This document shows positions 5,754-53,240 of a DNA stretch of 64,000 bases, piece after piece. Below the pieces are notes generated by a model, which worked only from the letters and a program-made list of their open reading frames with translations, had not been told where the DNA came from and searched no databases. The translations under genes and the position numbers were made by a program. This DNA is from Kudoa neothunni (lineage: Eukaryota; Animalia; Cnidaria), in NCBI GenBank assembly GCA_964304625.1, contig OZ199838.1, forward strand, positions 11,944,524 to 12,008,523. Direction: 5' to 3'. How positions within the stretch are numbered: the stretch's first letter is position 1; each line of letters opens with the position of its first letter.

Positions 5754-6907
5754 TCACAATAGAGGGTATGCATAGTATTTTGATATATTTAGGTATCCAT
5801 TTTCATCTTTAAGTACACGAATGTAACCATCTTCTCCCCAGAGACCACCCCAACTATTCTTTATGCACCAAAACTTTTCGGATCCTTCTCTACCGAATCC
5901 AGTGACAAGAACTGCATGATTAGATAAAACAACTTTCCCTTTGTTCTCTTTATCATCGTATATTCCGCTGCAGTAAAACTGGAAAGATTGGCTCGAAGCA
6001 TCCAAACCAATCGCAATGGGTCCGATCCTCGCAACCGCTAGCGCAAGGCCATTTTCATCAGGCTGTTCTTTTATATCGATGCTACCCTTTAGAACGTAAG
6101 AGTTAATCCTAAACCCAGTGAAGCCATCGTGCAGACACGTCCCTGTGTCATCATTATTCTTTATTATTAGGCCGAATAATATAGCTAATTACCCTTTTTA
6201 GGTGTATAAGGGTACTCTTCCTCAGTTTGTAATCCATTATGCATTAAGTATTCGAAAGCCAAATGGGGTAAACCGCCTCCACATCCATTATTTTCGGACG
6301 AACAATCTACTAGTTGTTTCTCACTGAAGCTGACAAGCTTATTTGTAGTCCTCGCATGCAATGCCTCTACTGCACCAACTGCTGCAAACGCCCAACAACT
6401 TCCACAACTTCCTTGGTCCTTTATACATGTTACCACCTTTTCAACTCTCCAATCGATAGCCAAAATGTCTTGGGATGACATATCTGCAGATTTTTCCAAA
6501 TGCAGATCTTGCTTATTACGTTTCTCATCATAAAGAAACCGGGTTCCATGATCTAAATGGAATCTTTCAAGGGTAAGCCTCTGAAGGTATTCCTCACGAC
6601 TCTATACACAAATTATTCATCGAAAATTTAAAATTATGTATTTTTAGATTAAAATTTTGATGGATAATGTGACCCGTTAAATAATTAAAGATAATTATAA
6701 CTATTTATATTTGATTACCAAATGGGATAGAGAATTATGGCCACATGTAAAAGATGCAGTTTTTTTGGCGTTGAAATTTTCAATGAATGAATGATTTGCC
6801 GTAAAGTAACCTAATCGACGAGTTTCATCTTCTACGCCCTCAGTTACGATGTTATGGTGTGACTTATGGGACATCCAAAGTCTCCTCGAAACATCGTCAG
6901 ACGACAT
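5754..6907 (-). CDS. cathepsin L-like cysteine protease (C1A) with I29 propeptide, copy 1; exons 6907-6719, 6601-6193, 6142-5754; 328 aa
   Basis: QGSCGSCWAF, NHAVLVTG and KNSWG catalytic motifs; ERFNIN-like propeptide; two GT-AG introns (117 and 50 nt) give a continuous 987-nt ORF. Confidence 0.93.
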
Positions 6908-8004
6908 AATTATATTGTCAAGTCAAGATAGATATGGATACGCTGCGCCGAATATATAATGAGGAATTAAATAATTATCAGGTACTACCTTTTATTCTTT
7001 GAGATAAATATGAATTTTTTAATTGTGGAATGAAATAAAATTTTGTTGTATGTTCCTGATTATTTTTAGTAGAATATTTTATCACGAAATTACACTTTTT
7101 CGAGATAATACATAGAAAGTAAATTTGAAGATACAAATTTTAATTTGATTATGGATGGATTTTATCACGTATTGCTGTCGTGATTACCTTTAAATCAACA
7201 CCGACAAAGAAGTTTTATCATTTGCGCCATACAATGTCGGAGAAACCTATAACCCTATGAAACTTTATATTTACATTCTATGTTACATTTCTTACAACTG
7301 TCCAAATGGCGTATAAAATAAAAATTTGTCCTTCCCCAAACTTGTCGATATTCAAGCTATTCATACAATACAATTATATATTCATTATCCAAATGAGTCG
7401 TTATCAATATTATTTTCGGATAAAATGCACTCCTTGGTCATGACACCCTGAGTATTATTTTGTGACCGAAACCTAACGATTGATTGCCATTAAAATTTCA
7501 TTTAAATCATAATTTGCATAGTAATTAAATATTCTTTATAAAATATTGTCAGTTGCTTGATCAATTTTTGTTCTACTTAAGTATTCAAAATATTTAGGAT
7601 GTTTTAATTATGTAGTGGATTATATATTTAACGAAATATCGGTTAGGTTAATTCAGACCGTTAAGACAAAAGACGTATGAGTATAACTGATAATGTCTGT
7701 TTGGAAGAGTTAAAGTTTTATCAGAATTGTTAAATTTATCAAAAATTTACTGATTTTAGATGTATTTCAATCTTAATAGCATTGAGACACAGGGTTACAT
7801 AGTCTAATTAGAAACTACTTTCGACTATCTATCTTAAGTTAATACATAATAAAATAATATATAAGGCCTATAAATCTTAAATTCCGCCTATAACAAAGAT
7901 ATTGGGATAAGTTATTCTTGTTACATAATTTTAATTTGTCCTATAACTTCAATGATATATTCTGGTTATTCATTACAGAGAAGCCAAATTATCAGAAACT
8001 TATA

Positions 8005-10151: not shown

Positions 10152-11309
10152 TTATAATTTTGGATATGTGTAGTATGTGGATAAACCCATGTACCCATTT
10201 CCGTTTCTATAGACATTACAATAGCCCTTATCACCCCATAGAGATCCCCAGCTATTTTTTATTTTCCAATAGTCCTGATCGGAATTTTCCGTACCATATC
10301 CAACAAGAAGAACTGCATGATTAATTTGAAATTTTTTATCCCTATTTTCATGATTAAAGTATACTCCCTTGGAGTAAAAGGAGAATTGGCGACAAGTAGC
10401 ATCGATTCCAGTAGCGACAGGTCCTACATTTGCTATCACTTTCATCAAAGTGTCTTCATCGAATGGGCTTTCACAATGTTTGTTGTAGCATCTCAGTGAT
10501 TTGATTTTAACTCCACGTTTTCCATGGTACCTGCATTCACCTTTCTACCCATAATTAAATTAAATAGATAAAAAGATAATTCACCCTAGCTGTGTATGGA
10601 TAAGCTGATTCTGTTGTTACGGCATTTTTGGTTGCGTACTCGAAAGCCTTATGAGGTAAACCACCATCACATCCACACTTATCATCAGAGCAATCGAGTA
10701 GTTGTTGCACACTCAAGCTCTCAAGTTTTTGATGTGTGATAGCATATGCTGACTCCATCGCCCCAGCAGCTGCAAAGGCCCAACAACTTCCGCAAGCTCC
10801 TTGATTTTTGACCGCGGTCACCACATATTTTTCGCACCAATCAACTGCAGGGGGTATTCCTAATTTAACATATTTCGAAACTTTGATAGCATGTTTTTTC
10901 TTTTGTGGTATATATTGGGGCTCTCTTATGGTTGACCTTTGTAACTGTTGGAGTTTCCCACTTTCTGAATTCAGCCAATTAATGTATTCATCATGAACCT
11001 TTAAAAGTATTATTTAATCAATTAAGAAGTTTAAACCAGTTGTTATTCATACATAAAACAAAAATCGACAAAAAATTCACTAATGTTTTTTACCAACAAG
11101 TGGATCAAGAACAAACTTACCCAATGGGACAGTTGATTGTGAGCACAACTAAAAGTGATACCCCTGCTGGCGTTTACACTCTCAATGAACGAATGATTGT
11201 CTTTGAAAGTCTCCAAACGACGACTATCCTCTTCCGCATTACTGAATGTTACATTATATTGCATTTTATGTGTCAACCAAATTCTTTGAGCGACATCGTT
11301 GGTTGACAT
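10152..11309 (-). CDS. cathepsin L-like cysteine protease (C1A), copy 2; exons 11309-11121, 10998-10585, 10544-10152; 331 aa
   Basis: QGACGSCWAF, NHAVLLVG and KNSWG; ERFNIN-like propeptide; two GT-AG introns (122 and 40 nt) give a continuous 996-nt ORF. Confidence 0.93.
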
Positions 11310-11979
11310 GATTCAAAACAGTTTTCAGGGCAGATTAATACGAAATTCAAAATCTCGTTTACGGAGATAATCTTTTAAAAGGTTGTTATTACTTTTTAAT
11401 GATTTTAACGAACATTACTGGTTAAGTTAAAATTAGAGATGAAAAGTTCCATAGTAATTTGCAGGTTTGTATGCGCTATATTATATATTTTAAAACTTTA
11501 CAAATAGATTTGACGAAGATATTTTTAGGGCATCTCAACATTGTGAAATCTACCTACAACATAACTGGTTCATGATTACATTTAATTAGTCACAATAAAT
11601 GAATTATATTGTTAATTGGGGGAAATCTATACTAATTTTAGCCATTATAATTAATTATTCGTTAATCTCACACATTATCTATTGTTAAAATCATATATAT
11701 TGATAAGTGTAAAACCACTCTTTATAAAAATAAATTAAAAAAATCATGGAAAATTATTATTTACAAAAATATAATGAGACGAAATATACTTGAGATGATT
11801 CTGCTCCAATTCGATATTATAAAAGATCGATTTACCATAATATGGGTTTATCTGCTACTAAGAGCAAGATAAATTATAATTAGAACATACCTTGCAAAAT
11901 AAATTCTAATCAATTTGTTAACTATTCAATACGAATAAAATTTTTTATAGAAGTTATTGCCCAAAAATGATGATTGATC

Positions 11980-12510
11980 GGTAAAACTGCAGCAAAGTCG
12001 CTGTATGTCAAATCAATGACAATGGTCAAAAGCAACTCTGTTGATAATTTTATTTTTGTGCATTTATCTGTGTTGATGAAACAAGATTTTGCATCAAGAA
12101 TCCAATTAGTTATCAATATTAGTTACTTCACTTTCATATTGAACTAGTATTCTCTCATAATCATTTTTAAATGTAATAACACTCAGTCAAGTAAAGTGTC
12201 GCTTATGTAATTTTAAATTTGGCTGTGGCAACTTTAATTCAGATGCCTAATCACAATTTCTCCTTAACTATTAGCTATTATAAATTCTTTGTCTATGAGA
12301 GTTTCTCATTTTATGCAACCTTTAAATATTCAAATTTTGCAAATGCATAACGCTAATATCAAAAATAAATTATTGGATGGAATACAGGAAATCCCTCTAC
12401 AAATTATTAAACAAATATCACATTAATTTGATTTAACAAATGTAGGATTAATGTGAGAATTATTTAAAATGTTTAACTGGAAATTGCAACCACCATTCTA
12501 CATTTTAACA
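11980..12510. mobile_element. MITE family A, copy 1 (most decayed)
   Basis: Homologous along its length to 18279-18821 and 26375-26930; right end CCATTCTACATTTTAAC; left end GGTAAAACTGCAGCAAAG. Confidence 0.6.
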
Positions 12511-13099: not shown

Positions 13100-15750
13100 T
13101 AAACATATGCGAATCCGTCAGGGTATATAAAGATTCAATTTTTTTGCAATTTTGCATTTCTCGTTCCAATCTCTCATCAAATCCTGAAAATATGAACTTT
13201 TCTTCCACTTTTGTCACTGTAACACGAGATCGTAAACATTCATAAAATTATTTGAATGATTGCAACATATGATGACGTGTCAACGAACATTAATTATTAA
13301 CAAGGGAATATCGGCCGGATTTATTATAGATTTACTAGATCGGTTGTGTATGCCGTTATGTTGATTCATTATAAAATCTTGGAAAATTTCACTACAGTAG
13401 TATTCCAGGCTTCCCACATCGGTTGATCGATTAGCAGTATGTCTCTAATTAGGTTGGAAAATTCGACGAAGCTCTGATCGTTGCCAAAACCGGTGATTAT
13501 TTGTCACATGTCTCTTTCATTTTCAAATTTTATGGTTCTGATACGACGCATCGTCGCAGAATCTTCTATTGCAAAGCTTGTAAGTTGGTTTACCGCAATC
13601 ATTAATTTGGCTTTATTGTTAAACGTTATTAATTGATTACTATACAGTAGCCTGAAGGTTATAACGTATCCACCTTAAATTTTTAATAAAAATTTTATTA
13701 ATTCATATATGTACATACCATTCAATATCTTTATAGTGGGAATTGAAAAGTGTCCCCTTCGACTCGCTAACTATAGCCAACAATTTATCAATGAAAGGAG
13801 CTAATCTTGGATCGCAATCCTGGCTAATTTGGTTTTTATGGTTTTTGTTAACCACGAAAAGATCTCCAGGCACGCAATAATTGAAATGACCAAAAAAGTT
13901 TTGGATTGCAGACATTAGAATGGGTTTGCCATTCCTACCCTTAGGACCGTACAAAAACAAAGGTGTTTGTGTTTGCGAGGCTTGCGAAATTTTCTCTAGT
14001 AAATAATTGAGAAAAATATTTATAGGGTAATTGTTTAAAATGGTTTTCAGAAACACAGTCCAATTAGAATATGTGGTTGTTGTGTAATTAAATTGGGATC
14101 ATTTAACGGGAATATCCTCTTCTCTTTGGGTCTGTAATCTCCTCTATGTTTATTATATATATAATTGGCGAGATGTATATTATTTAAATAACAATCTGTT
14201 GCAATATTGGATTTTAAATAGAATTTTTCCAGAATGATTGACTCCTGTACCATGCCAATTTTTGGAATTTTTATTTGTTTTATTGCTAATTCAAGTAGGG
14301 AATCAAATTCGTAATCATATTTTTTAGAACAATTGGTAATCGCTTTCCTAATTCGCTGAGGAAGGTGTGTATTTTGTTCTTTAACCAATTTCCTTTGGAC
14401 CAATGACCACTGATTATTTGGTGTTGAATAATAAAACCATGGTTTAGGTCACCAATGTAAACATAATCTTGAATTTTTTCGGAAAACAGAACCGGATTCA
14501 AGCATTTGTGATAGATTAGATTTGGTATTAAATCTCACATGGATTCAATGGAAATGTTTTATCCTTTTACAATGATTTTTTGGGAAATGACGTCTAATGG
14601 GCTGGATGTACTCACTAGATCAAAGATTTTATGTGTGTTATTTGAAAAATTCTTATTTGCATGCTATTAAAAGGCAAGAATGTAATTGGTTATTATTATC
14701 AGGATTCTCCTAACTTCCAAATTGATAATCGTATTTGAATTGATTTTTGTTGAATAGAATTCATTGTAATTTTCCAAATTTCGGATTATGTGTCCTTCTT
14801 CAGTGTTATAATGATCACGATAAAGTACATTTATATGTGGAGGTTGTTTTCAGAGGTGACCGGTGACGTGTACAATTGGTCATTTTGGTTTAACGCCGTA
14901 ATATCTGGATCGATCCTTTTAACGTCTTGGACATTTGTGAGTTTAACTCATCCTTGTACATGAGCCACTTCAAACCCTGAAAGTCCTTGCGAAAAAATTG
15001 GCAAAATTTCTTGAATTTGGAGTCGTGAAACCTTATTACACACGATGAAGGAGTAATTACTCCATATAGATAATTGAGTTTATGTGTACGATTGTTCTTT
15101 TTGCAGAAACCGTTGAATATGTAGAAGTAACAATTATTTCTCCAGCAGAAATTGACGGAACGATGAATATTTTCACCACCGTAAAACATTGATTATTTCT
15201 TTTATAAATCCATTAATAACGATTTAAGGAATTTTAGCCCAGGTAGTTGAGAGATCACACGGAAATGTGGAGAGGTTTAATAAATGATCCGTACTAGAAA
15301 TTTCAGGTTAGTTTGAAATTTTCCGGTTTAAATTTATTTAAGTTTGAAAACTTTTCTTAATTGATCAAATTTTGAGGCATTTACAAAAATCACTATTTGA
15401 CCCCTATCTGTATGCCCTCGAACTAATAAAATGTAAGGAGTAATATCAAGGATCGTTAACCAAGGAATGTGACGTTAGCTAGTAAAAGAATAATTGAATT
15501 TGAGGGGATTATTCGTTTATTTTTTCAACTTGATGTCTTTTAAGTCATCAATGTTTTTTAAATCGAGGTTTTGTAGAATAGAATTTCTGTCCGTATCGAA
15601 GTAGAGAATAATGGGTTTGTCTTCATGACGTATTCGAATACGTTTGATTTTTTTAATTTTTCCACAAGAAAACCATAAGTTCTGGTTGATAGCGTAAACT
15701 ATCCCCTCAGTTTGCGATACTTTTTGTTTCAATATTGTAAATGGGTGCAT
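13100..15750 (-). pseudogene. AEP primase (PrimPol/NCLDV-herpes type)-Zn finger-D5-like SF3 helicase fusion, copy 1, decayed; 45-nt intron at 13718-13674
   Basis: ILYFDTD (AEP motif I), YSLH (motif II), FCKKNNRTHKLNYLY...HD (Zn finger), LYGPKGRNGKP (Walker A), LAIVSE (Walker B), KILNG|GYVITFRLLY, LMIAVN (motif C), DSATMRRIRTIKF (Arg finger); multiple frameshifts; 3' boundary approximate. Confidence 0.8.
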
Positions 15751-16049
15751 TATTGCAATAATTTGGTAAAGAGGTCTACTATTGGATGACGGATAACGAA
15801 AAAAACACGATTCAGTAATGTCACTGGCGATTCTAAATTAGTGTCACGTCATCAACTCCCCGAAGTAACCGTAGTGTTAATACTAATGTTATTATATGAT
15901 ACAGAACTTCGAAATCACATTGCACGCGGTATCTATCGTTCGGATCAAATTGGGGTTTTTTGAATTATTTAGAACTTTCAATTTTAAAGATGTACTTTAA
16001 GAACATAAAGAATGATATTTATGAGATTCTTGTCAATTGTCACTGGGTG

Positions 16050-16335
16050 ATTCAAGTTTAATTAACTACATAATGACTCAGGAACGAGCGGCCAAACCAA
16101 TAGAGAGATCGCTTCGAATATTAAAATGGACTAAAATACGACAAGGAAAATAATTAAAGCTTATGAGACAACAGAAAGATTTTGTCCTTCAACAAGAGGT
16201 GGTGATAGGCAATCAATTTTGTTGAACAGTCACAAGCAATTCATTATGGAATTAATCAACGGCGATTGCACAATATCGCTTAAAGTTACACTGGATAAAT
16301 AAATAGATAACTTTAATATAAAAGCATCAAAACTT
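16050..16335 (+). pseudogene. IS630/Tc1-mariner-type transposase N-terminal (HTH) fragment
   Basis: Translates as TTRKIIKAYETTERFCPSTRGGDRQSILLNSHKQFIMELINGDCTISLK. Confidence 0.55.
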
Positions 16336-16489
16336 GCGTTAATGATGTGATTTTAAATCTGATTTAACAAATTTCAGTTTGCATCATTATTGAGAACGGT
16401 CTTATATTGTTTGGTGAATCAATATTCATTAAATCGTATTTTCTGGAATGTTTATACGACGAAATAGTTGAATTGACTTAAACTTTTTT

Positions 16490-17166
16490 TATTATTACTT
16501 TTAAAATATGCCGATTGAATATGGCCATGTTTTATGCTGTGGTTACATACAACATCCTTAAATTTGCATTTATTAGGTGAATGTCTTTTTTTTCACAGGA
16601 GTAGAAAACTCCTTTTATCATTTGAATTTTGTTTATTGGTTCCTCTTGAACAAAACTAGATAGTTTTGCTCCGTTTTCAGCCACTTCTCGATCAGAGAGA
16701 AATGAAACCATTGCTCCTCATATTGGATTGGTAGATTTAACACATCATTTCGTATTTTACCAGAGTGCAAACCATTTATTTGACGATCCCTCAGGTTCTC
16801 GTTTAAGTTTATACCAAACCGACATGACATATGATATTACCAGCTTTTTTAATTCTCTGATGTATTCAGCAATGGTTTCTTATCGGTGTTAATTTCGCCA
16901 GTTGAAAATTCCTCTCATAGCAATTACGTTTATAGGAGATGAAAGACATTTTACAAGAGATTTCTCCAGATTTTTCAAATTAACGCCCATAAATGTTAAT
17001 GGGAAAGCTTAGCATTGATCTCCTTGTACTCAGTAGTGTTCATGCTCATTAATATTAGAGATTTCTTCTTACCGTCATCTAATATTGAATTAAGCAAAAA
17101 GTATTCGCGGATTTGTTCGACAAAACAATTAATATCTTCATTCTTATCGTATTTAGATATTTTCAT
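16490..17166 (-). pseudogene. Ty3/Gypsy LTR retrotransposon gag remnant
   Basis: MKISKYDKNEDINCFVEQIREYFLLNSI..., ETIAEYIRELKKL, CRFGINLNENLRDRQINGL, and a degenerate Zn knuckle CKFKDVVCNHSIKHGHIQSA. Confidence 0.7.
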
Positions 17167-17544
17167 TTTTAACGAGTCTTCGCCGCTAGTTGTTAATGCC
17201 GTGCGTTACGATCATAGGAAGGGTTCATTGTGCTTATAAAACATACCAGTGACAAAGAACAGTACTCTAACTAGACCGTTTGTTTATATAGATAGGGAGA
17301 CATCATGTAACACATCTAAAATGACGTCACGTCTATGAACTAACATATTTACGATGTACTAAATTACAAATACATATGAAAATTAATAATAATGTTAACT
17401 AACACATACTAACGTTACTCCGCGAAAAAATAGAAACCAATGTATTAACGAATAATGTAACTGAATTTGAAGTGATGGTGACCGTATTAGTAAATAGGAG
17501 TTAACCCGGGCGTATTAGTTAGAATAACGATAACCAATTAATAA

Positions 17545-18185
17545 TTAAGGAAATCAGCACGCCTAGCTGTATGGATGCCATAAGGTTGGTCCATAGTAAA
17601 CAACTTCCTTTGGTGTCATAACAAATGGTAACTTTTAAATAAAGCACTACCAGTTATGGACAATGTATCCCTCCATAAAATCACTGAACGCTTTTTTTGT
17701 TTACAAGGTCAAAACCCGGACGCAACTTGTTAGGTTGTGAAGTTCGGGCTGGTTAGGCCGTCTCCAGTTACGCTTTAGGCACCGCAACGCCATATTAAGG
17801 CGACTTACGCTTATGCGGTAGAGTGGGACCATAACCCATTAAACATCTTCGTTTCGGAGCAAACACCACCCAAAAAATACCCCGGACTAACCCTGAATTA
17901 GTCCGGGAAAATCGTCTGTATGCGGGCGTCAGCTTTACGGAAACCCCCTACTGGGTTGGATTTCGTCCCTGTAAACCGGCGTTTATGAGCGCCCAAGTTC
18001 TACTATTCCGCCAGGTTTCCCTCCCAAATGCAAGCAAGACTACGATAAATCGTATAATCCTTGCGATTACTACATCCTTCCTACTTAATTTCGGATTAGG
18101 AGTACAGGAACGCCCCGACTAGGCTTCGAACTCGCAATCTCACGGTATGCGATCCCGACCTAAAACCACGATGCCACATTGTCCA
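17545..18185 (-). mobile_element. tRNA-derived SINE-like element
   Basis: GC-richer island; minus-strand head has A box TGGCATCGTGGT and B box GAGTTCGAAGCC in tRNA spacing, without a perfect cloverleaf; internal palindrome CCCGGACTAA-ccctgaa-TTAGTCCGGG; tail boundary approximate. Confidence 0.6.
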
Positions 18186-18278
18186 GGCTACCGAGATATG
18201 GGGGATCAATAGCTGAATATTATCGTATTTCATATTCTTATCTCCTTATTTGTCTTTTTGAAATCCACTGGAAAATAT

Positions 18279-18821
18279 GGTTGAAATGTAGAATAATGGT
18301 CGTAATCTAAATCAGCGACACCAGAAAACAACGAACCTGTTGATTATTGTAATTTTTGTATTTATCATTGTTTCATCACCCGTAAGTTATTTTAGGCACT
18401 GTATTTGTTATCAATAATAGTTGTTGTAAAATATTATTTAATAACTGCTTGCCTCTCGCGGTTATTTCCAAAAGCAATATCATTTATCGATCGAGTAAAG
18501 ATTGCTTTATTTATCCTAAAATTTGAGTGTAACAACTATGATTTTTTATCAAACGTCATATTTCATCCTTAGCAATTGCCTACTATTAATTAAATGCCTA
18601 TAAGAATAAGAAATTCATATTTTCTGCCAGCAATAAATGTTAAATTGTATCAAATGCATAACGTTAATATCAAAAATTATTTATTATAATTAATCCACTA
18701 ATTCCTATGATTAAATATTCAACAAATTTCATACTAATTTGATTTAAAAAATTCAGTATTAATGTCCGAACTAATTACAATATTTAATCCGTACATGCGG
18801 CCATTATTCTACATTTTAACC
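18279..18821. mobile_element. MITE family A, copy 2 (GG-ended 24-bp TIRs, possibly Merlin-type)
   Basis: Left GGTTGAAATGTAGAATAATGGTCG versus reverse complement of right GGTTAAAATGTAGAATAATGGCCG (22/24); no ORF; TSD not recognisable. Confidence 0.75.
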
Positions 18822-21800
18822 GACCTGCCTCATCATAGATTTTGAACATGATTTTTAACTATACTCTACGAATTACGAACCTCCAAATAATGTTTTTTTA
18901 CCTATATTAGGTTTGGTTTTTAAATTCTGGCATGAAACAAAACTCTCCTGAAAAACGAATAAAACCATTTTCATAGTTCCAAATATCACTAACCATCAAA
19001 TCCTCCTGCCCCCCTTATGATTAACTCACATAGATCAAATTTGTCATATACATTGGGTGTCTATTTTCAATCAATGTAAAAAACGGAATAAGCGGAAATA
19101 ATACAAATAACCAACATTACATGAATATTTAGAAAATTAAATGTACAATTCTATAATTAAGAAACCAAATAATAAATACAACTTTTACGCGTATTAAAAA
19201 AACCAAAAAATAAAACTTCACAACAAAATAATACCCAGAGAGTCTAATTCGATAAACGAATCGACATATTTTGCTCTTTTGAAAATCCTTTTTAAAGCTC
19301 TTCCATCTCTCTTCTTAGTTTCCGTCGAATTATGATTATTTTACGGAGATAAGCAATGAATTCATATTTTAATTGCTTATTCACCGTAATATCGTTATCT
19401 TTAATGATTCTAGGATCATAACTCTCCACGAATTCTCTGAAACATACAAAGTCATCTTCACTACCCTCACACAGATGTTCATCCAAGAAATTCTGCAATC
19501 CCCCAGTATTCTCTTCTCTGAATACACATTCCACCGAAAAAGAAGAATCCTTTAAATTAATTAAAGAGACATCTTTGATGATATTAACGAATTCTGACAG
19601 ACACGAGTCAGTGGACAAGTCTCTTACGAGAGAAACCATGTCCCGCTCTAACTCACCCTGAAATTCATTCTCAAATTTTATTACTCTCACCCTACGACTA
19701 ATAGCAGCGTCTCCTCCAATAAAACAGGTATTTTGTTTGTAGCTACTATTATCTTTGATTTATTGACAAAAGTATCCGATTACTAATTCATTCAAAAACA
19801 ATCTTCTGTACGATATACCATCATTCACTATGTTAAAATAAATAAACAAATTAAAAATTATCGAAAACTAACCAATTAAACTTTTTATGAGGGATGTGTT
19901 GCATAAACAACCTCGGTTTTCTCCCACCGTTGTCAATTTTGTTGTTGAGAAGGGAATAAATCTGAGGTCATTGTCCCTCGCAACGTCACCGTTTCCATTC
20001 TTGGATATTACAAGGAATGCACCCGCAACGTCATAACGATACGGTTCAAACAGATTTTTAAGAATAAACAAAAGTGTGCTTTTCCCATTGCGTCCTTTTG
20101 GCCCATTAAAGAACAGAATTGTTTGAGACAGTTGTGATTGGAATAATGCTTCCGTTAGATAATTTAGAAGGATATTTTTGTCCTCTTCTCCAAGCAGGGA
20201 ATCCAAAAATTCTTTAATTTGTTTGGATGAGATATTGGGTACATAATTGAAATTAAAAAATTTCAATGAAAAATCCCCCTATTCTTAGAGCGTGTTTTGA
20301 AGTCTTCCAATGAAATCAAACAATTTTTAAAATGGATGTGGTTGTAAAAACTAGAAATCGCGTCGACCGATTTTATCATAATTTTTCCGTTATTAATCCC
20401 CAGTTTACGGAGTCTCACTTTGTAAGCTTTAGAAGATTTTCCATTTCTTTTATCACAATGCAGATATTCGAAATAAGGGAAACCCCCGGATAATTCATTA
20501 AAACATTCTCAGTTACGCTTACCAGAATACTTCCATTTAGATAAATGTATTTATATATGGAGCTATGTAACAATTTTTTAGGGGTGAATCCCATACATTT
20601 ATCTCATCAAAAGCGGACCATTCGCCCCATTCCAATACATACATCAACTACTGCTGGTAATCCGAGCTGAGTATTACATCAACCCAGTTGAAGTAGGTTA
20701 AATTATCAAATAAGTTTTTCGGATTTTCAAGGGTAGCCTGCGGAAAGAATATATTTAATTCCTTTAGGATAACGGAATAAGAATTCGCCGACATGGCTTC
20801 CGATGGATCCTGGAGATCTTTTTAAGAATATTAATACACCAAATTTACACGAGAATAAAAGGTTACTTGAGTTTAGATTGAAGGAAAGGTTAACTATAAC
20901 GTTTAGATTATAATTCACACCTCATAGATAATGGGTTGGCCTGAGTTTTTGGGTATTTTATGTGATTTAGGAGATATTTTATGGGTATAATGAGTTGGGT
21001 CCACCAGTTTTAGGTTGTCCTGATTAGTCAGAGTTGCCTCATATTGATTTTGTGATAATTCCATGCTTCCCACTCCAACATCTGCATTCCTCACCAGTTG
21101 AAGTAATTGTTTTGTTAAAAAGTCGTTGTATACAACTTATTCCAATGGATATATTTGTTTGATATTGGTTTGTGTTATGAGCCCACAAGAGGAGTCATGA
21201 CATGAAATCATGACTCTTCTTGGGGTGAGGGTACAATATAGGTTGTTGGAATTGTGTTTCAGTTGGGCTTCTTTGCATATACCCTCAGAGTCAAGAAAGT
21301 AGCAAGTTCTTTTGTATTATAAGGAGAGGAAATCGTCTATATTTTGCGGACCATAAATTTCGGGAATCATTCCTTTCATAATCTCCTCTATGAACGAGTT
21401 AGGGGAAATTTTTTGGGGAGCTAATGATTGGTTTGAGGGTTGGGGAGAGGTGGAACCAATAGGCGGGTTGTTGTTTGGATTAACGGATACTTCATTATGG
21501 TGGATCGATAAATCTAAGAATGAAGAAAGATTGGCCGAAATTTCTGCCATGAATATGGTTGTTGGTTTGTCTTTATAAAATGTCAAAGTTTTTTTTATGA
21601 AGTCATCACTGGCATCCACTTGAGCGGGCATAATTGGCAGAAGTTTACGATGTTCCTTTGCATTAGATGCATATACATTTCTGAAAAGCTCCCCTCCTAT
21701 CACTGTAAACATAGGAATCGACATCTCTTATTTGGAAAAATGAGTTCTGATTGAGGAAATTTTTGAGACTGGTAACACCAGGGAATACTAACAATCCGTT

Positions 21801-23106
21801 ATCGTTTTTAGTGTACATTCGTACCATAAGATAGGCGGAGTGTTTCATTGAAGAGTTGTGGAAGTCGTGGGATGTAATCAAATAGAACTCAATTTGAAAT
21901 ATTGATTCAAAAATATTATTAATCATTTCTTGGATTGTTCTGATAGTCTCATTGCCCATTTCAATGGGGGATTGAGGAATGATGTCTTCTGGGTTCATTT
22001 TTATGTCCACATCGAAGTATGGGATAATGTGAGAGTCTCCTGGTGTATATTTAAATATGTTATGCGATTTTATTTTCTGGACAACGTTGTCGTAGGATGG
22101 GGTGGGTTTATGACGCCCGTAGTGATTCAAGACGTATACAATCCTACCTTTGTTCAAAGCACGTAGCTTAGACGAACTCATTTCAATGATTGTGAGTATT
22201 AGAGCTTCTTAAACACGCGGATGTAATGATTAAATTTGATGCCTGATGAATTAAGCACAAAAGTGGCGATAAAATGTTATGCGTGATAATTAGAGTAAGA
22301 TAGGGTGTGGCATATAATGTTTCTAAAAGTCGAACGTGATATTCTTTGTATCATAAACACAGAATCGATCAAGGCATGCGTGAGATAAATTGAGTGTTAT
22401 AGTTCTAATTAAGTTAGAAAAAATTACTTCGATATATTTTCCATCCTAACAAGATAATTACTCTACAATTTTATGAAATTTTAAATAAGTTTAATATTAT
22501 AATAAATTAAAAGATGTATAAAACATATTATTGTGTTCTTGTCTGTAAAAACGTTTACTTTCTATAGCTAAGGCGACCTTTAATGTTAAAATTCGAATTC
22601 CTTAATTTTAGAGCTATTAAAATTTGTAACCGTGATGAAAAAGGGATCAATCCTAATTCATCTCACGCTCATTAGTTAATATTACACACTTCACGTTACA
22701 CGCGTAGAAAGTCTAATTTGAAAAATATTTTATGCAGTACGTATTATATGGTCAAACAAATGTTTCATAAATAAACATCGTAGGATTTGGTTTCAAATTT
22801 TAAAGAAACGGTAATTCGTTTTAGGCCTTTTTAAGGGATTATATTTCTTTTAAAGTCATATGCATGTGTACGAAAGATATTTAATGAGAATGCACTAATT
22901 ATAATGCTGATTGAAGAGGGTTTAATGGTAGGTGTAATTTTTAAAATATAATGTTTGTAACGACATTTCGGTGGGAGGTATGCTATCGGAAAAATTTTAA
23001 AAACCAAACTTTATTAAGTATAAACAAAATATATAAAAATCAGGTAGATTTGAATTTGGTAAAATGTAGTAAAAACTCATGCATCGAAAATATGATGAGG
23101 CACGTC
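18822..23106 (-). mobile_element. putative TIR-bounded element carrying only a primase-helicase gene
   Basis: GACCTGCCTCATCATA at 18822 and its inverted copy TATGATGAGGCACGTC at 23091-23106 (15/16); about 44/63 ungapped identity over the first 63 nt, plus shared GTTTGGTTTTTAAA further in. Confidence 0.6.
19292..22181 (-). pseudogene. AEP primase-Zn finger-D5-like SF3 helicase fusion, copy 2, frameshifted; 45-nt intron at 19872-19828
   Basis: IPYFDVD (motif I), KHSAY (motif II, His to Tyr), VDSYVYS...FRNVYASNAK (motif III), CKEAQLKHNSNNLY...ISCHDSSC (UL52/PrimPol Zn finger), FNGPKGRNGKST (Walker A), KLTTVGE, IIVATNKIP, DAAISRRVRVIKF. Confidence 0.88.
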
Positions 23107-23610
23107 TAATTTTTAAATATTAGACTTGCCTCATCTGTATATCGTGTAATTTTTATGTAAAATGCATCAATGTAAGTTATACCTAATTCCTTTGGAATTA
23201 ATATATCAATGTATAAATTTAATATATTAGGTATACCGAATTTCAATATTGAACCTTAACCTTAGATATATTTTTTCCGTTTTTGGAATAAAAATTAATT
23301 TTTACTTTATTTAAGAAAACTTTACATTTTAAGCATTCATTCAGAAGTTAAAAAATTTATATTTATTAAGGATGAACAAATAAAATAATTATTAAAGATT
23401 GGTTTTTAGGCTTTGAGGATTAACATAGGGTCTAATATAACAAATTTTGATAGATGTATTATTAATTGAGCCTGCAATTTTCCACGTTTATTTTTGGAAG
23501 AATCGAAGTTTTAAATCGAAAATTGCATGTTCTATTTATTAATAATAGATTCCATTTTATTTAATTCCGATATTTTCATAATTATTACAAAGGAGTATCT
23601 TATACATAAT

Positions 23611-23613
<3 letters not shown>

Positions 23614-23651
<38 letters not shown>
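23614..23651. repeat. (TA)n microsatellite
   Basis: Uninterrupted TA run. Confidence 0.95.
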
Positions 23652-23652
<1 letters not shown>

Positions 23653-23976
23653 GAGCAACATGTAGTATGAGTATGGGAAATTATTTTTCTCTTAAAAGCA
23701 GTCAATAAATAGGAAAGTGTGTGGTTCGTTAATAACATCCATTGATAATTTTTTTCCAAATCTTTTAAGTTTTTATTATTAGATTTAAAAAATCTAACTA
23801 AATAATTCAACTAAATATGATAAGTTTTTTTTAAAACGTACTGGATACGAGATAGTTGGCAAACTTGATCTTATTCGTTGTTAATCTAAACAAAACAAAT
23901 TAGAATCATTTATTGTTGATATATGCTAACTTTTACATTAGCTATGTATAATAGAAGCATATTTTATACTTTATCG

Positions 23977-25229: not shown

Positions 25230-25960
25230 CTGTTTTTTGAATAGAAACTCTGCAACGCATTCCTACTGATGGACTCTAATGTTGGGTCCTTTTGTGCCTA
25301 ACCATTTTTTTAGTTTCATCCAAAAGTTTTCAACCGTTTGAGTACGAATCAACGAATTTTGAGGATCCACTAAGTGGTAATCGTGTTTGACCACCGAATG
25401 ATTCATACCCAAACGGTATAAATTGTTGTAGGATAGCCATCCGTCTGTGACAATGATTGTGCCTGTTATTATTCGTCTTTTGATGATTGCAAGAAGAGTA
25501 TCGGCGGCCCTGGTCGAGTCGGTGAACTTTATGAAAAAATCGAATTTTTGTTGGCCATTATTATTTCGGCAAATACCACCAAGAACACATTGTTCAGGTA
25601 GTGGACGCCCTCGGTTGTTTTTCCTTCATACTAACAACGTTTCGGCGATTTCAACAACTTGATTTGAACCACCGATTTTAATAGTGACGTTTCTTTCGTA
25701 ATATTGGATACATGATTTGCGAAACAGTCTACTCCAATCCACAACAATATGAAAAGAATAATGAAATTCTTTTTTTATCAATCCAATGGAGTAATTATGA
25801 CTCCACAATCGCAATAATAGAAATATTTTGAAGAGTCATTTTGGATTCGAAAAAACGGTCCATTTCTGGTGGATATTTTTGTTGACATCCACCATCTCTA
25901 GGTGTAATTATCAATTATATAATGACTGGCACGGATCATATAATGGTCACTATTCGGACA
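25230..25960 (-). pseudogene. Merlin / IS1595 (ISXO2-like) DDE transposase pseudogene
   Basis: KIGGSNQVVEIAET...RKNNRGR...VLGGI...GTIIVTDGWLSYNNL...HSVVKH...VDP...TQTVENFWMKLK, with stops. Confidence 0.85.
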
Positions 25961-26374
25961 TATTTGTTTATCTGAAATCAAACCATCGTCTATACAAAAT
26001 TTTAGAGTATTTTTATTGTTGGAATAAAAAATTCGACAGACTCAAGCAACTTCATTTTGTCTGAAATGAGATTATCAGTGCAACTGAGGTTATTTATAGA
26101 GTTGACACTACATAAAACAGCGAAATTGAATGTTATCTGTTACCTAATGGTGTTTATCAAGTTGAAAATAATTTTTAACTTAACTCAAAAACAACATCAT
26201 AAATAATTCTAATTCGATACCAACTTTGTCTGAATTTTGATTTTGTTTGCACACACATTAAATTATATATTTTAAAAGGGTAATCGGAAACTCTAAAATT
26301 ATTAATAAGGAATCAGATAAGAGAAACCCGAGTGTAAAAATATATCCCGCGTGGAAATGACGCATGCGAAGGTA

Positions 26375-26930
26375 GGTAAAATTGCGGAATAGTGGCCGTA
26401 ATCCAAATCAACGACAACGGACAAAAACGAACCTGTTGAATATTTTATTATTGAGTATTTATCAATGTCGCATCTCCAATAGGGCAACATTGACAATTGC
26501 TATTTCTCATCACAATAATAGTTGGTGTAATCTATTATGTATTGAACTCCTAGCTCCTCGCGATTATTTCAACAGGATGTACCGCCAATTAAGCCGGTTC
26601 GAATAAAGCAAGCTTTATGTATTCTAAAATTGAAGTCGGAAAACTCTGATTTTGATGGATTATCACAATATAACCTTAGCAATTCTCTACTGTATCAATC
26701 CATTTTCTATAAGAATAAGAATTTCATATTTTATATAAGCACTAACTAACTAATTGTCGTGAGCGTATAACGTTAACATCATAAATAATTTATTGAGTGA
26801 AATTCGGACATTATTTCCATTAAATGGTCTAACAATATCATACTAATCTGATTTAAAAAATTCGTGTTTAATCCCCAAACTAATTATAACCTTTATTCGG
26901 CAAATATGGCCAATATTCTACGTTTTAACG
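26375..26930. mobile_element. MITE family A, copy 3
   Basis: Left GGTAAAATTGCGGAATAGTGGCCG, right TGGCCAATATTCTACGTTTTAACG; internal blocks shared with copy 2 (ACGAACCTGTTGA, CCTTAGCAATT, CTATAAGAATAAGAA). Confidence 0.7.
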
Positions 26931-31758: not shown

Positions 31759-34155
31759 CCCTTTCATGCCTATTGTGCGGTATATTGAACATTAACTTCT
31801 CCTTCGTTTAAAATGAACATTTAACTATTGTTTAGCATTCGTTACAGACACGTAAGTTTAACTCAATTAAATGTATAAAAATCGTTAATATTACATTTTT
31901 TAAGAAATTTTATGTGTAGTAAATTTCATTAACAATGTTCAATTCTCCATATCACGTTCGTCCTAAAAGTAATGTATTAATTTGTATACCGAATTATATT
32001 ATTTTTTGGAACCAAAATTTTTGCAGTTACAATATGTTGTTGTTAATTAAATTTGACTCTTTAAATTTTAAGAAACTTATTATTATCTGAAATGATACGA
32101 TTTTAAGTCTTGTCAGTAAATTGAACAACAGGAGCACGTGGACCTATTTTTGGACAATCGCAATGGATTACGACATTTGTAACGATGAGGATAAAACTGG
32201 AAAAAGAACTTCGGAAATTATAGTGCTACCTGATGTCGACATATCCGAACCGGGTACATATTCTGAAGACGATACAACATTTACATCATCAATATTGAAC
32301 AAATTTTCAGATGCGAAAAAATGTTCATCATCCGATGATTCTGACGCTGAAATTGACACTGGCCTTCAATGGAAGAAACAAGATATTAGTTCAAATTTAC
32401 CAGAGGAATTGTGCAACTTAATGCTTAAATGACGAATTTGAAAAGTTAGATCATTTAATTCACCCCCATCGATTATTTCAACCAATTTGTTGACGATGAT
32501 TTGATTGAATTAATTGTAAACGAATCAAATCGATACGCCATACAAAATAATTCGAATTTTAAGACAAACGGTTTAGAAATTAAAACTCATTTGGGAGTCA
32601 TAATTTTAATGGGGATTGTACAGATGCCTCGTTATCGATGCTATTGGTCCAACCATTTCAATTATTCACCTATTTCGGATGTCCTTTCTAGAGACAGATT
32701 TGAACAACTCTCAAAATTTTTACATTTTAATAATAATGACAATGCAACTAACGATCAATCTTCCCAAACGTTTGATCGGTTTGTCAAAATTAGACCTTTT
32801 TTGGAGCACTTGAGGCAAGCATTTTTAAAAATCACTCCAGAGAGCATAAATTCGGTCGACGAACAAATGATTCCCATTAAGGGTAAATGCCGAGAAAAAC
32901 AGTATATATCAAATAAACCGACCAAATGGGGCTTCAAAGTTTTTGCTAGATGTGGAATAAGTGGGATAGTGCATGATTTTCATTTGTATGATGGAAAATC
33001 GCCTGTTGTACAAGAAAGTTGTGGTTTGGTTTCTGGGGATTTCGTAATAAAATTATGTGAACAACTTCCAAAGAATAGGATGTATCTATCGTATTTCGAC
33101 AACTGGTTAACATCATTCCGGACGCAACTTATATTGAAAAAAAAGGGGAATATATTCGGTGGGACTATTAGAAATAATAGAATTAAAGGATGTCCTTTAC
33201 TCGGTAAAAAAGATTTAATGAAAAAAGAACGTGGCTTATTTGATGTTGCTCAAAGCTCTAATGATGCATTAATATTAACTCGATGGTATGATAGCTCCGT
33301 TGTGACTTTACCATCCACTCATTCTGGTAGTGAACCTCTAACAACTGTAAATAGATATGATGGGCGACAAAAAACGCGTTAAAGTCGATTGTCCAGCTGT
33401 TGTATTGGATATAACAGAAACATGGGTGGTGTTGATTTGTCCGATATGCTAATGTCACTATATAGGTTAAACCATAAATGCAAAAAATTTTACATGCGGA
33501 TATTTTTTTGAGGCATCAACACCGCGATCACTAAATCATGGTTATTGTATCGGAGGCAAAATTCCATGACTAATGTAAACAAGAGTAGAGTTCTTGATTT
33601 GCTTTCGTTCACATATTCAATCTGTGAATCATTATTGTATAAAAACCAAACATTAATACAAACTCGAAAACGTGGTCGTCCGGTTAATGATTGTAATTCA
33701 CAAAAAATAATGGAATCTACTATATCGAAACGCGAGAGAAATACTCTTTTATCAGATCACATTAGATATGATAATGTCGGCCATTTTCCAGAGGTAGTAT
33801 CTACGCCAAGTAGATGCAGAAGTTGTGGAAGAAACACTCAAATAATTTTCTTAAAATGTGGCGCACCTTTTTGTCTTGTAAAAGGTAGAAATTGTTTTTA
33901 TGTGTACCATAATACTTAAAATTATTGTTTTATTGATAACTCTATCTGTTACTGGTATAATAATTCGATTTCTTTATTGAGCATTTTCTTTACCACAAAA
34001 TCCCATTGTTCAGCTTACTGACCAAAACTTCAACTTAAAAATATTGGCCCAAAAAAATTTCTCGCTCCAAATTTTTATTTATTTAGTATTAGAAGAATAT
34101 ATTGTATTAAAAAAATTTTTTTAAAGGTGTAAATAAATATTGAGGCACGAAAGGG
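31759..34155 (+). mobile_element. full-length piggyBac transposon A
   Basis: TTAA TSD at 31755-31758 and 34156-34159; 13-bp TIRs CCCTTTCATGCCT / AGGCACGAAAGGG (1 mismatch). Confidence 0.95.
32163..33919 (+). pseudogene. piggyBac DDD transposase (PGBD2/3-like) broken by a few frameshifts and stops
   Basis: SVDEQMIP, YFDNW, MGGVDLSD catalytic motifs; KPTKWGFK; C-terminal Cys-rich RCRSC...KC...CLVKGRNCF..YH. Confidence 0.92.
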
Positions 34156-37545: not shown

Positions 37546-39879
37546 CCCTCCAAACATGCCAAAAACGACTATACACTTAGCCGTTTTGAGGTCCAGAAAG
37601 ACCCCACTCTTTTCTTTCATATTTTTAAAGATAAAATTATCAAATATTGTTTTAAGAATGAAAACATAAATCTATCGACTAGATAGAGAGGAAATGGATA
37701 AAGATATAACTACAAAGATTGGCGACCCAGCCCGAATGAATAAATAGCTCCTCTTAGATTTTAAATTTGATTAAAATTGCATAATCTCACATCAGAAAAC
37801 CACATTTAAATTATTCCGTGCATTATTTTAAAATTTTGGGTATCTCAGACCTTTTATAATGTTTAAACTGCAAGATATTCTTATTATATTAAATTATATT
37901 TTTCATTACTATATATTACATCAATTATTATTTCTTAACAGACTAACAAATCAACAATGTCTTTAAAGAATAATTTCTAAGATGAGTGATATATCCATTA
38001 ATTTAAACACATAACCTCTTATCAATATAAATATAATCTAAATTCATATTTATTAACCGTTTCAAATATTCTAACGCCAGAAAGAACAAGACCAATGATA
38101 AATAAAACAATACTCAATGATAGACGAATAATTAATGTTTATATTTTTTTACGCAATTGCAACAAACAATTTCAGAGTGATTATTACAACAATATTTTGA
38201 AAAGCAAAAACATATTGATTTTGTTTTTCTATCCGAACCTGGCAAACAAAGATTGCACCTTTTTTTAGATTTAAAAGTGAAGCTTTCATTATTCGAAATA
38301 ACAGGATCATTCAGAAATGGTTTCACTAATAAATCCGCTAAATCTTCTGGATATTTGGCCCACGAGATGTTAGGATTATTAAATATAGTTTTATACAAGT
38401 AAAACGAGTTGACCAAAGTTAAGTCAATCATATTGAAAAAAAATTTAAGATCGGTCATCGTTGGATGATGTAGCCAACAAAATGACAGCCTTGTTCTTTT
38501 TTGACACATAGGATAACATCATCTTTTTCTTATGATGAACAAAAATCGGACTAAAGATTTCCCTCATTTTGTTCGGCTTCACAATCGGCGCAATTTCTCT
38601 TTTGTTGTGGTGAAGAGTTCTTAGTATTGTTTATCCAAAATCAAGACGTTTTTCAGCCAACTCGATCGAGGTAAAGAAATTATCACATACGATAGATACT
38701 TCTACCAGATCCTTTTAGATATGACGATAGCTCTAAAACAACCTTTTCTCCCACATTCTTTGTAACTTCATTGGTAATTTTACCCAGATAGATGGAAATA
38801 TTATGGGTATAATTGGTGTGTGGATTGGTTAATAGAAAAAACTTTATGCCATAGACTGCAGGCTTAGATGGCATGCACTGTTTAAAGGGGCGTCTGCCAC
38901 GAAATGCTACCAGCTGCTCATCAACAGTAAAACTTTCAGAGTGAGTTAAACACATTGGAAGAATTCTTTTCCATTTATTAAATAAGTCAATTATTTATTG
39001 AGCAAAACTTATCATTTCCACGCAGTAAAGCCCTGGTCTCAAAATCATCAAAATGAATACTTCTGTTGATTTATGTGAATCATTCTAGCGACATTATTTT
39101 TCTAAAAACATCTCGTCCTTTATTCAATTATTCTAGCTCCACAATTGTTTGAGGGATTCCATCTTGGATTTAAAAATACACATATACATATATATAAGAA
39201 TTCCCCGTATGCTTTCATTTCCACTAATGTTAATTCATTCCATTTATTTCTGTAATGGAAAGACCCAAATTTGTCTGCGTTATTAATAATGATTTTATAA
39301 AATTCGTCCTCAAAAAATAACGAAAAACAATCTATAAAACAACAAATTCTTGACGATGCGAATGCAGTTGTTCCCGGGACTTTGTTTAAAATATTCCCCT
39401 TCGCTGTTTTAATATTTGAGGGAATATCAGGAAACCATACAACATCGTTTTCATCTTTATACATATTAATCGGCTCAAACACATCAACGCTGTCACAACT
39501 ATTAGAAGAAAAATCATCTTCCACATTATTGTCAATTTCACTGCAATTTGATTATTCACTTGATGGAAATTCAATAAACAAGATCTCCATTTTGTTTGTC
39601 GGTAGGTAGGTATCGTTGGCTATGGGGAATGATCGGCTGTCATAAAATCATGTTTCACTCAATATCGATAAGACCAAATTTTTTAATAAAGCAGTATTTA
39701 ATTTTATAGGATTTTGTACATGTTTTAAATGAATTTTTAGTTATAAAACCTTTTTTGTATTCTTCGTAAAATATCCGGAGAATAACGCCAGATTTCATTA
39801 AATTAGCCATTTTCAACAAGCAATAAATTGGCCCAGAATTTGGTTTGGAGTCCAAAGGACCCCAAACATGCTCGGAGGT
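37546..39879 (-). mobile_element. piggyBac transposon B (PGBD4-like), decayed transposase at about 39600-38132
   Basis: TTAA-CCCTCCAAACATG at left, degenerate inverted CATGCTCGGAGGT-TTAG at right; FTVDEQLVAFRGR, KPAVYGIK, CDNFFTS, C-terminal RCNLC...CCNNH..IVCCNC. Confidence 0.85.
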
Positions 39880-39883
39880 TTAG

Positions 39884-42127
39884 TTATTTCAATTATTTAG
39901 ACAGTTGCTCAAAATCAATGTTAAAATTTTTGGGGTAATAAGGTAGTTCAATTTATGCACAAAAAAATCGGCAAAATTAACAATCACTACAACACTATAT
40001 GTTTGACAATAGGCAACATTCTTTTTAAATCTGTGTGATGAGCAGATAGGTCTTTTACAATTATGACACTCTACGTTGGTTTTTCGATCAGCATTTCTTG
40101 AGCAAAACACAAAACTTGATCTTTTATATACAGGACTCAACCGAATCGAATCGGATATATCATTATTATTTGTGTACTTGTTAAACCGTTCAAAACTGTA
40201 TTTTATATGTGATTAATAATTGGATCCCACAGTTTGACGAAGTAACACATTCGACTGTGCTGAATCGATACACAGAGCTCTTAAGAAATGTTGTTTGCGA
40301 CTCCGATCGTTAGTTCTCCAATCAGGGAATTTGGATGTCCATATGACACAAGCATTAAGAGCTGATGTATCCACCAAATCCATGAACATACGTAAAGGCT
40401 ACCTTCTAGTTGATCTTGAACAACTGTACAACCCGTTGATTCTGTCACCGTTATCAACCGCTTCTTTAGGTTTATTGTAGTGGAGAATAATTGTTGGTCT
40501 CTTTCTTACACCCGCTTCTATTTCACCATCATTTATTTTACTGGATAATAAATAAACAACCCGATTCTTTTTCGGGATATATGACATCATTGTAATGTCA
40601 TTATAGAAACAAAAGGTGGACGAAAGCTCAGGTTGATTTTTAAAATTCAATAAATGTTGAGAAATGTTCGTGTTATTGCGCCTAACAGTACCCGTTAACG
40701 TAATTTTATTTTGTAACAAGATAGTTGCTAGCGGAACCGTTGTAAAAAAGTTATCAGTGGTGGCACCACGACCTGATCCATAAACAGGTTCATTTAGTTC
40801 CTTGACAACTTTTCCCTCTGTTTTGAATCTCTAATGCCTCAAATCTTACCAGTGTAGGGTTCAATATTTGATAAATACGACGTCTCGACATCCGCGGCCA
40901 CCCATAACTTCATACCGTGGCGAGCAAGTTTATTTAAGTACACTCGAAATGGGTATCTTCCGCGAAATGCCACCATTTTTTCATCGACGGTTATGTGAGA
41001 ACCAGGAGAATAGTTTTTTTGGAAAGAATCATTTATTTCATTAAAAGTTTCCAGAATGGGTTCGAATTTATCATTAGATAAATAAAATCTAAATTGTCTG
41101 GTTTGTTTATTACCGAACCGTATTACTATATATATATATGAGAAAAAAGATTTCTTGTCATCGGAACAGAAAAAAAAATATTGTTTGAATAGCGGGTTTG
41201 TATCCCAAATATTTTTTAATGATAAATTTGAACCATTGCATCGTCCAGAAGCAATTAATATCCCAATAAAAGATTTTAACTTTTCAATGGTTATTTTTTT
41301 TCATTTCTGTACCTGCTATTGGAATCACAAAAATTATTCGTGTAATTTTGAATCTTTTCTAGAATGGAGTCAGACATAAAAAATTGAAAGCAATCAGAAA
41401 TCCTGTTCACATTTTTAGCATCACCTAAAAGTCTCGAGTTACTTGTGACGATATTATGAACTCTAGTTCGGGTTCTTGTTTGATTTGTAATATCCCACAG
41501 AATTTCTGATTTCGACATTGATTTATTGTTATCAGTTTGGCATTCATTATCATTTTGAGAATCAGAATATGGGTCTGAATACGGGTCTGAATCTTCCACA
41601 ATATCCTCATAATATGAGGCATCCGATAGGTCACCTTCAAATTCAAGGTCTCTATCGGAGCTTTGATCAATCTCTACATTATCATCAATTAGTTTATTCA
41701 GATCTTTGTAATACGACATGACTAAATACATACAAATTTCATTTCAAACTACCCGCGTAATTTTACGGTAATGGTGTACTTACCCGCTACCAAAATTAGG
41801 GATGATGTCGTGACTTTTTTCGGCCGATTTTTTCGTAGATTTATTTCATTCATTCTAATAAGTTGCAGCATATAAAAATAAGTCTATTTTTTTGTTTCTA
41901 ATGTTTCCTAAATTCGTTTGCCATAACCTATTAATTGAGCATAACAAAACGTGTCACGCCAAATAAAAATAACCTCAAACTATATATTTCCTCACATTTT
42001 ACCGCGATATATAACTCATAATAATATAATATTGAATCTAATATAGTTATGCATATATGTGATTTAAGTTTGTATTTTATCACTTAAGCTTAAGGATGTA
42101 CGTTTTCAGAAAATAAGGCGGCAATGG
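39884..42127 (-). mobile_element. piggyBac transposon C (PGBD4-like), decayed transposase at 41731-39900, 3' end missing
   Basis: ITVDEKMVAFRGR, TTDNFFTT, YNKPKEAVDNGD, CHNCKRPICSSH; terminus GGCGGCAATGG-TTAA at 42117-42131. Confidence 0.82.
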
Positions 42128-52714: not shown

Positions 52715-53240
52715 AACCTAAATGTCCTCTATTTCTCAAATTGGGGGAAATTTATCGTTTCGCTGCCGTTCCTCCTTAGTTTCTGCATTATCAAAGTGGA
52801 GCGCCCTTGTTAATTTCCTGAATCCGTATAAGGAAAAAAAATCTTTGTATATCCTCCTACCTTCGTCACAACTGAAAATTTCAACAACTGGCTCTTGGTT
52901 TTCCTTATGGATAGTTAGGTACAATAAACAGCCAATGAAACCATGTATTTCATCAACATAAACATCTTCCAGTTATTTCTATAATGGTTCTTACCGCACT
53001 GAGTCATATATTTAATTGTTTGTTCCATTATTTCTATTGGGAAGAAATGCTGAAAATATCCTGCAATACTAAAGATCCTTTGTGTGGCGTACATAGTCAC
53101 ACCTTAAAGAAAATTCATTTTATTCTTTGCCGCCATCTTGGTTTTCTTTGTTTTGATTGCACTCCATAAATCGTTGTTTTTGTCTACAAGCGAATACATC
53201 AATATCGGTTCTATTTGCCATTTTCCGTACATGCGCCGCA
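52715..53240 (-). pseudogene. piggyBac transposase N-terminal fragment (PGBD4-like)
   Basis: FFPIEIMEQTIKY...GRRIYKDFFSLYGFRKLTRALHFDNAETKEERQRNDKFPPI matches the pre-catalytic RFxxLxxxLHFD...DKxxPI block. Confidence 0.75.

Follow-up and report, generated by a model that had tools for sequence, protein, structure and literature searches.

A pseudogenized D5-type primase-helicase enclosed by long imperfect inverted repeats in AT-rich eukaryotic nuclear DNA

The self-synthesizing eukaryotic elements known so far carry a protein-primed polymerase or are full viruses. Polinton-like viruses (PLVs) as well as virophages, as described in the available text of PMC11296320 and PMC10120064, place a primase-helicase beside their terminal inverted repeats (TIRs), and endogenous PLV-type viruses are intronless in the consulted part of PMC10120064. 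Mavericks/Polintons are characterized in the available sections of PMC8097293 by pPolB, an rve integrase, capsid genes, a 6-bp TSD and intronless ORFs, with intact Mavericks described as intronless. Additionally, KolobokH and AcademH are presented as TIR DNA transposons that carry accessory helicases in the accessible text of PMC9587614 and PMC10045372, the TIRs of entomopoxviruses contain mobile, repeat-flanked D5-like helicases according to the corresponding part of PMC11296320, and primase coupling is noted merely as a possible route to new elements in the available portion of PMC6431247.

The unit described here occupies 4.3 kb of the window, by which we mean the whole 64-kb stretch of DNA that was analysed. 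As far as the available texts of these sources go, it resembles the D5 end module of PLVs and virophages, being TIR-bounded with a putative D5-like AEP and an SF3 helicase adjoining the inverted repeats; however, the latter elements span 15–30 kb, whereas the present unit has no detected capsid, tyrosine recombinase or rve integrase and does have a predicted spliceosomal intron. Within the same texts, long TIRs and a viral-type replication gene are features in common with Mavericks/Polintons, but none of the hallmarks of that group (pPolB, rve integrase, capsid genes and 6-bp TSD) was seen. KolobokH and AcademH are likewise TIR elements with a helicase separate from the transposase; in the accessible descriptions KolobokH combines a RecQ helicase with a DDE transposase and a defined TSD, whereas a putative AEP-SF3 fusion with no detected transposase and no recognisable TSD is present here. 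The entomopoxvirus D5-like helicases, so far as they are described there, are also lone, repeat-flanked genes without a transposase inside, but they lie in viral genomes beside T5orf172 nucleases, while the gene studied here lies in nuclear DNA, bears a predicted intron and is not accompanied by a nuclease of that kind. No nuclear, intron-bearing, TIR-bounded element with a D5 primase-helicase alone was found in the full-text literature, a scope that leaves most subscription papers, Repbase and supplements outside; the available portions of PMC12730594, PMC8855578 and bioRxiv 2026.07.28.741278 hold nothing specific to such an element.

The window consists of AT-rich eukaryotic nuclear DNA (GC 25–36%), and the unit in it is delimited by two arms, the left of which adjoins another repeat:

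18822..19053, plus strand: left arm, strong over 18822-18940 and weaker from there to about 19053, with MITE A cutting its outer end
22864..23108, minus strand: right arm, strong over 22990-23106
18279..18821, unstranded: MITE A, an abundant separate repeat beside the left arm and outside the unit

These inverted repeats are real, well above chance and co-linear over two blocks. The sequence-only reading had reported a 16-bp core at both ends, about 70% identity over 63 ungapped nt, a second shared inner block and a right end that opens inward with TAGAC, and each of these observations was reproduced. The core is present as GACCTGCCTCATCATA at 18822 (plus strand) and GACGTGCCTCATCATA at 23106 (minus strand), 44 of the 63 positions are identical, and TAGAC is read inward from 23108. 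The inner block, the 14-bp GTTTGGTTTTTAAA, lies 90 nt inside the left end and 98 nt inside the right end and occurs once per strand in the window (18911, plus; 23009, minus). The arm pair is the longest inverted repeat within the window. Its local score of 134 compares with 40.0±6.3 (maximum 63) in 200 dinucleotide shuffles, none of which reached 134, and with a maximum of 70 among 144 window pairs of comparable spacing, taken as an empirical null. The outer 120 nt scored 82 against 26±4 in shuffles (0/200) and nt 120–260 scored 38 (1/200), the signal being weak to about 230 nt, and similarity past nt 260 was not significant (67/200 shuffles). No iterons were found in the arms, which enclose exactly one gene with margins of about 470 nt and 900 nt.

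In agreement with the earlier remark that MITE A abuts the left end and that no TSD is visible, MITE A ends at 18821, where loose ends occur in at least 22 contigs from run X1, and the left arm starts at 18822; with its left end cut in this way, the unit has no recognisable TSD at its ends. The left tip was plausibly lost through an adjacent deletion at MITE A. A superfamily assignment from the TAGAC start was dropped because the true tip is undefined. Neither a partner arm near either arm, nor a second element with these ends, nor an autonomous partner sharing them was identified in the window, and no empty site for the unit was found.

The enclosed gene, hereafter copy 2, comprises the following parts:

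19292..22181, minus strand: D5-type primase-helicase pseudogene, with stops and several frameshifts
21663..22181, minus strand: AEP-like primase region at the N-terminus, with an open frame of 172 codons
21173..21316, minus strand: predicted zinc finger, C-x5-H-x-SNN...CHD-x2-C, partly common to copy 1
19873..20305, minus strand: SF3 helicase, pre-intron part, with Walker A GPKGRNGKS
19828..19872, minus strand: predicted phase-1 GT-AG intron of 45 nt, 16% GC, with an in-frame stop inside
19292..19827, minus strand: SF3 helicase, post-intron part, and C-terminal region

The pre-intron part matched PHROG primase (E 1.3e-8), and together with DUF5906 in the atlas and D5-type phmmer matches this identifies a D5/P4-type SF3 helicase. 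Among 1.84 billion representatives, phmmer returned seven weak matches, four of them D5-like and three to unrelated repeat proteins; three of the four D5-like matches were confirmed by Pfam (D5_N/DUF5906/Pox_D5). The language-model features of the AEP-like region reached 0.97 to AEP_C962R clusters, those of nucleocytoviruses and preplasmiviruses, with a recognition value (2276) just below the tool's line of 2300. This region had no match in Pfam, PHROG primase or PDB, and its single-sequence fold was uninformative (pLDDT 37.5); we take its motifs to be like those of AEP primases. The predicted zinc finger, also lacking a Pfam match, has positions C14, H21, N24, H40 and D41 in common between copies 1 and 2, and its Cys/His cluster presumably resembles the zinc fingers of PrimPol and poxvirus D5. 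An 18-bp inverted repeat with a 7-nt loop (21183-21225) lies inside its coding region.

Copy 2 is a pseudogene, a point missing from the sequence-only reading. Six stops were counted in 740 codons of its best-kept blocks, the frame changes near 21650, and several more breaks fall within 20305-20920. The stop counts correspond to about 0.05 substitutions/site (95% 0.02–0.12), a lower bound because only the best-kept coding blocks were used and the most broken block, 20305-20920, was left out. The arms differ from each other by 30%, which, set against this divergence of the gene, fits TIRs that were imperfect from the start. Sequencing error is an unlikely source of the breaks, since contigs of two runs reproduce the sequence: in one X1 contig that covers 18648-23840, 1 letter differs and 24 are gaps, and neither differences nor gaps occur in five X2 contigs lying within the interval, both runs being from one sample that is possibly the window's source.

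The description of the 4.3-kb interval as holding only the primase-helicase gene stood, as no transposase, recombinase or capsid was detected. A six-frame Pfam scan of the interval returned no families, and the same scan also missed the primase-helicase itself; being blind to a known helicase, it may have let a very decayed transposase escape. Pfam, whose sensitivity for decayed genes is low, revealed no remnants of capsid, ATPase, protease or recombinase genes in the interval or the right flank, where a Merlin-type transposase alone was recovered.

The 45-nt insertion, which the sequence-only reading did not mention, interrupts the helicase. The preceding part ends at residue 592 of the D5 homologue P0008; the one that follows is back in register, its residue 37 aligning with P0008 residue 628. 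A second gene copy has the counterpart:

13426..15837, minus strand: primase-helicase pseudogene copy 1, 30-39% identical to copy 2 in aligned blocks

In copy 1, a 45-nt GT-AG insertion (13674-13718, 11% GC) occupies the same codon position and phase, and an alignment of both copies past the insertion scores 123 against 31±5 for shuffles. Nearby host introns, judged by eye in the cathepsin and NUBPL-like genes, measure about 40–63 nt. Because the insertion is of host intron size and common to both copies, the gene family was likely spliced in the nucleus. We infer that the insertion is a spliceosomal intron gained before copies 1 and 2 split. This common intron-like insertion argues for a long nuclear history over a freshly integrated viral replicon; the ORFs of PLVs and Mavericks are described as intronless, in contrast to the predicted 45-nt intron in both copies here.

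Copy 1 lies 3.5 kb from copy 2 in the same orientation and is surrounded by other repeat remnants. The copies are 38% identical in the helicase domain, with no DNA-level match. Inverted repeats above chance were not found for copy 1 (score 64, reached by 21 of 100 shuffles), nor was any match to the copy 2 arms around it. Primase-helicase copies lacking the arms had been named in advance as evidence against a TIR-bounded element, and copy 1 is such a copy, though one of only about 38% identity that is set amid other repeat remnants. Head to head with it lies an HTH remnant (16066-16359, plus strand) with the look of an IS630/Tc1 transposase N-terminus (Pfam E 0.11–0.18), which may point to a two-gene arrangement of copy 1; no counterpart was found around copy 2.

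The right end of the unit includes a further structure that had not been noted earlier:

23094..23135, unstranded: 42-bp palindrome with 21-bp arms, no loop, 2 mismatched pairs and centre TTT|AAA

It joins the tip of the right arm to a third core at 23123, which faces outward. Its fold z is −6.3. Microsatellites aside, no better palindrome occurs in the window, and this one can also be read as 17-bp arms about an 8-bp AT core. The palindrome may have arisen as the end of a second element placed back to back, as a recombinase-type site or as an opened hairpin. Extension of the third core past its first bases was not significant (p 0.03–0.48 over 10 tests), so that no second element is supported there, and no partner of this core was found downstream or elsewhere in the window. 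The six bases AAATAT that precede TAGAC at the third core also end the stretch left of MITE A (18272-18278), a match that may be due to chance in AT-rich DNA.

Contigs of runs X1 and X2 were compared with the region at 80% likeness. Among the matches listed, the summed depth over 18904-23115, arms included, was 8.0–11.4 in X1 and 5.1–12.7 in X2, and that over MITE A and the 17692-18189 repeat was 180–930 in X1/X2, values that do not equal copy number. No young family of the element is evident from contig depth. Among the same matches, contigs of either run piled up on MITE A and not on the arms, which speaks against the arms as ends of an abundant MITE. Close protein relatives were absent among 4122 candidates for the helicase region and 151 for the AEP region, and locus-level relatives among 221 metagenome, 176 viral and 10 viral pattern matches. 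The exact DNA patterns of these ends had no match in viral and metagenome contigs, PDB sequence searches yielded nothing meaningful, and the three Rfam matches all fell below gathering score.

We tentatively favour, at a little under even chances, the reading that the copy 2 unit is a dead non-autonomous copy from a TIR DNA transposon lineage in which the primase-helicase was a regular accessory gene. The gene would have originated in a D5-bearing virus or virus-like element and would then have acquired the spliceosomal intron and undergone diversification in the nucleus. A transposase or recombinase, either provided in trans or since deleted from within the element, would have bound the arms, while the primase-helicase would have primed and unwound DNA, either to copy the element or to repair its gap. 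Later, MITE A would have taken away the left tip and any target duplication, and the palindrome would mark where the end of another, related element joined it back to back at an AT-rich target. By analogy, the helicase-bearing TIR lineages KolobokH and AcademH may support this reading; the AcademH helicase is of a class that differs from the putative AEP-SF3 fusion. Against mobility, no TSD, second element or empty site was seen and copy 1 has no TIRs; there is no direct evidence of movement under any reading. The sequence-only reading had offered either a TIR transposon carrying a replication enzyme or an integrated linear replicon: the TIR-bounded, lone-gene unit is upheld, mobility is not, and a hairpin-ended replicon is left a small chance by the palindrome. 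If the favoured reading is true, a nuclear transposon lineage took over a viral replication enzyme and kept it long enough for an intron and paralogues of less than 40% identity to arise; dead and alone, copy 2 points to such a family without proving it. We regard as decidedly unlikely the broader proposal of an undescribed group of small nuclear eukaryotic elements, about 4 kb long, in which a lone spliced D5-type primase-helicase would copy the element from long imperfect TIRs whose tips are palindromic (hairpins or recombinase sites), as a capsid-less, polymerase-less self-priming replicon or transposon.

The enzyme might have had no role in mobility if an unrelated TIR element accidentally took up one resident virus-derived D5 gene, a Pack-type capture that we consider unlikely yet deserving of weight. 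Copy 1, at 3.5 kb in the same orientation with the common intron and without TIRs, fits such a source, and DDE remnants crowd the region (Merlin-type at 25.3 kb, four piggyBac-like); however, the whole gene fits between the arms with short margins, no further cargo was detected, and both copies are dead, unlike a host-kept gene. It is improbable that the unit is the relic of a PLV or virophage-type provirus, an end module of TIR and primase-helicase that outlasted the capsid genes and the tyrosine recombinase or rve integrase, with the palindrome as a recombinase site. The TIRs and often adjoining primase-helicase of PLVs (available text of PMC11296320 and PMC10120064), the likeness of the N-terminal region to nucleocytovirus/preplasmivirus AEP clusters and the 17-bp-arm reading of the palindrome suit it, but no capsid, ATPase, protease or recombinase remnants were detected in the interval or right flank, such elements are intronless in the descriptions available, and no relatives were found among viral contigs.

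At least as improbable is an integrated linear nuclear replicon with hairpin ends, in which the TIRs would have served a single primase-helicase as origins or telomeres and the palindrome would be an opened hairpin joined to the chromosome. A zero-loop 21-bp palindrome with an AT-rich centre does lie exactly at the intact end, beside one replication gene without integrase or TSD; yet the left end is cut by MITE A, the arms have no iterons, no telomere resolvase gene is present, no extrachromosomal form was seen and copy 1 has no such end. Finally, it had been conceded that the arms might be ends of independent small MITEs, but no partner arm was found near either arm in the window, nor a contig pile-up on the arms among the matches listed. 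The related composite, in which MITE A copies would flank the Merlin-type transposase and the primase-helicase, would accord with the presence of MITE A some 0.5 kb downstream of each gene copy and with the Merlin-type remnant 2.2 kb outside the right arm. No MITE A ends have matching flanks, however, and MITE A copies are 65–76% DNA-identical while the genes have no DNA match and were thus not duplicated together; we hold either version to be very improbable indeed.

Genes in the window comprise two cathepsin, one Rictor and one NUBPL-like gene, plus many DDE transposase remnants. The cathepsin relatives are animal proteins (33–51% identity), which makes the host a divergent eukaryote and possibly an animal; a myxozoan-like parasite would be a guess. 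The two diverged cathepsin L-like genes (5754-6933 and 10152-11335) have short introns and an unusual insert ahead of the mature domain. MITE A is present in three copies of 530–555 bp (11980-12510, 18279-18821 and 26375-26930) with GG-starting TIRs and DNA identities of 65–76% to one another; no target duplication was found at any of the three in the window, and two adjoin remnants of other mobile elements. The abundant repeat at 17692-18189, with a summed contig depth of up to 930 among the matches listed, opens on its minus strand with what we take to be tRNA-like A- and B-box motifs and closes on that strand with an A run; it is likely a tRNA-derived SINE. A minus-strand remnant at 16750-17205, lacking a Pfam match, presumably resembles a Gypsy gag N-terminus. 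The broken Merlin/IS1595-type transposase lies at 25263-26070 (Pfam E 1e-11), 2.2 kb beyond the right arm. Four distinct piggyBac-like (DDE_Tnp_1_7) transposase remnants occupy 32091-33919, 38132-39551, 39889-41743 and 52739-53184, and a small element at 61860-62588 has inverted repeats of 37–76 nt that are 80–84% complementary.
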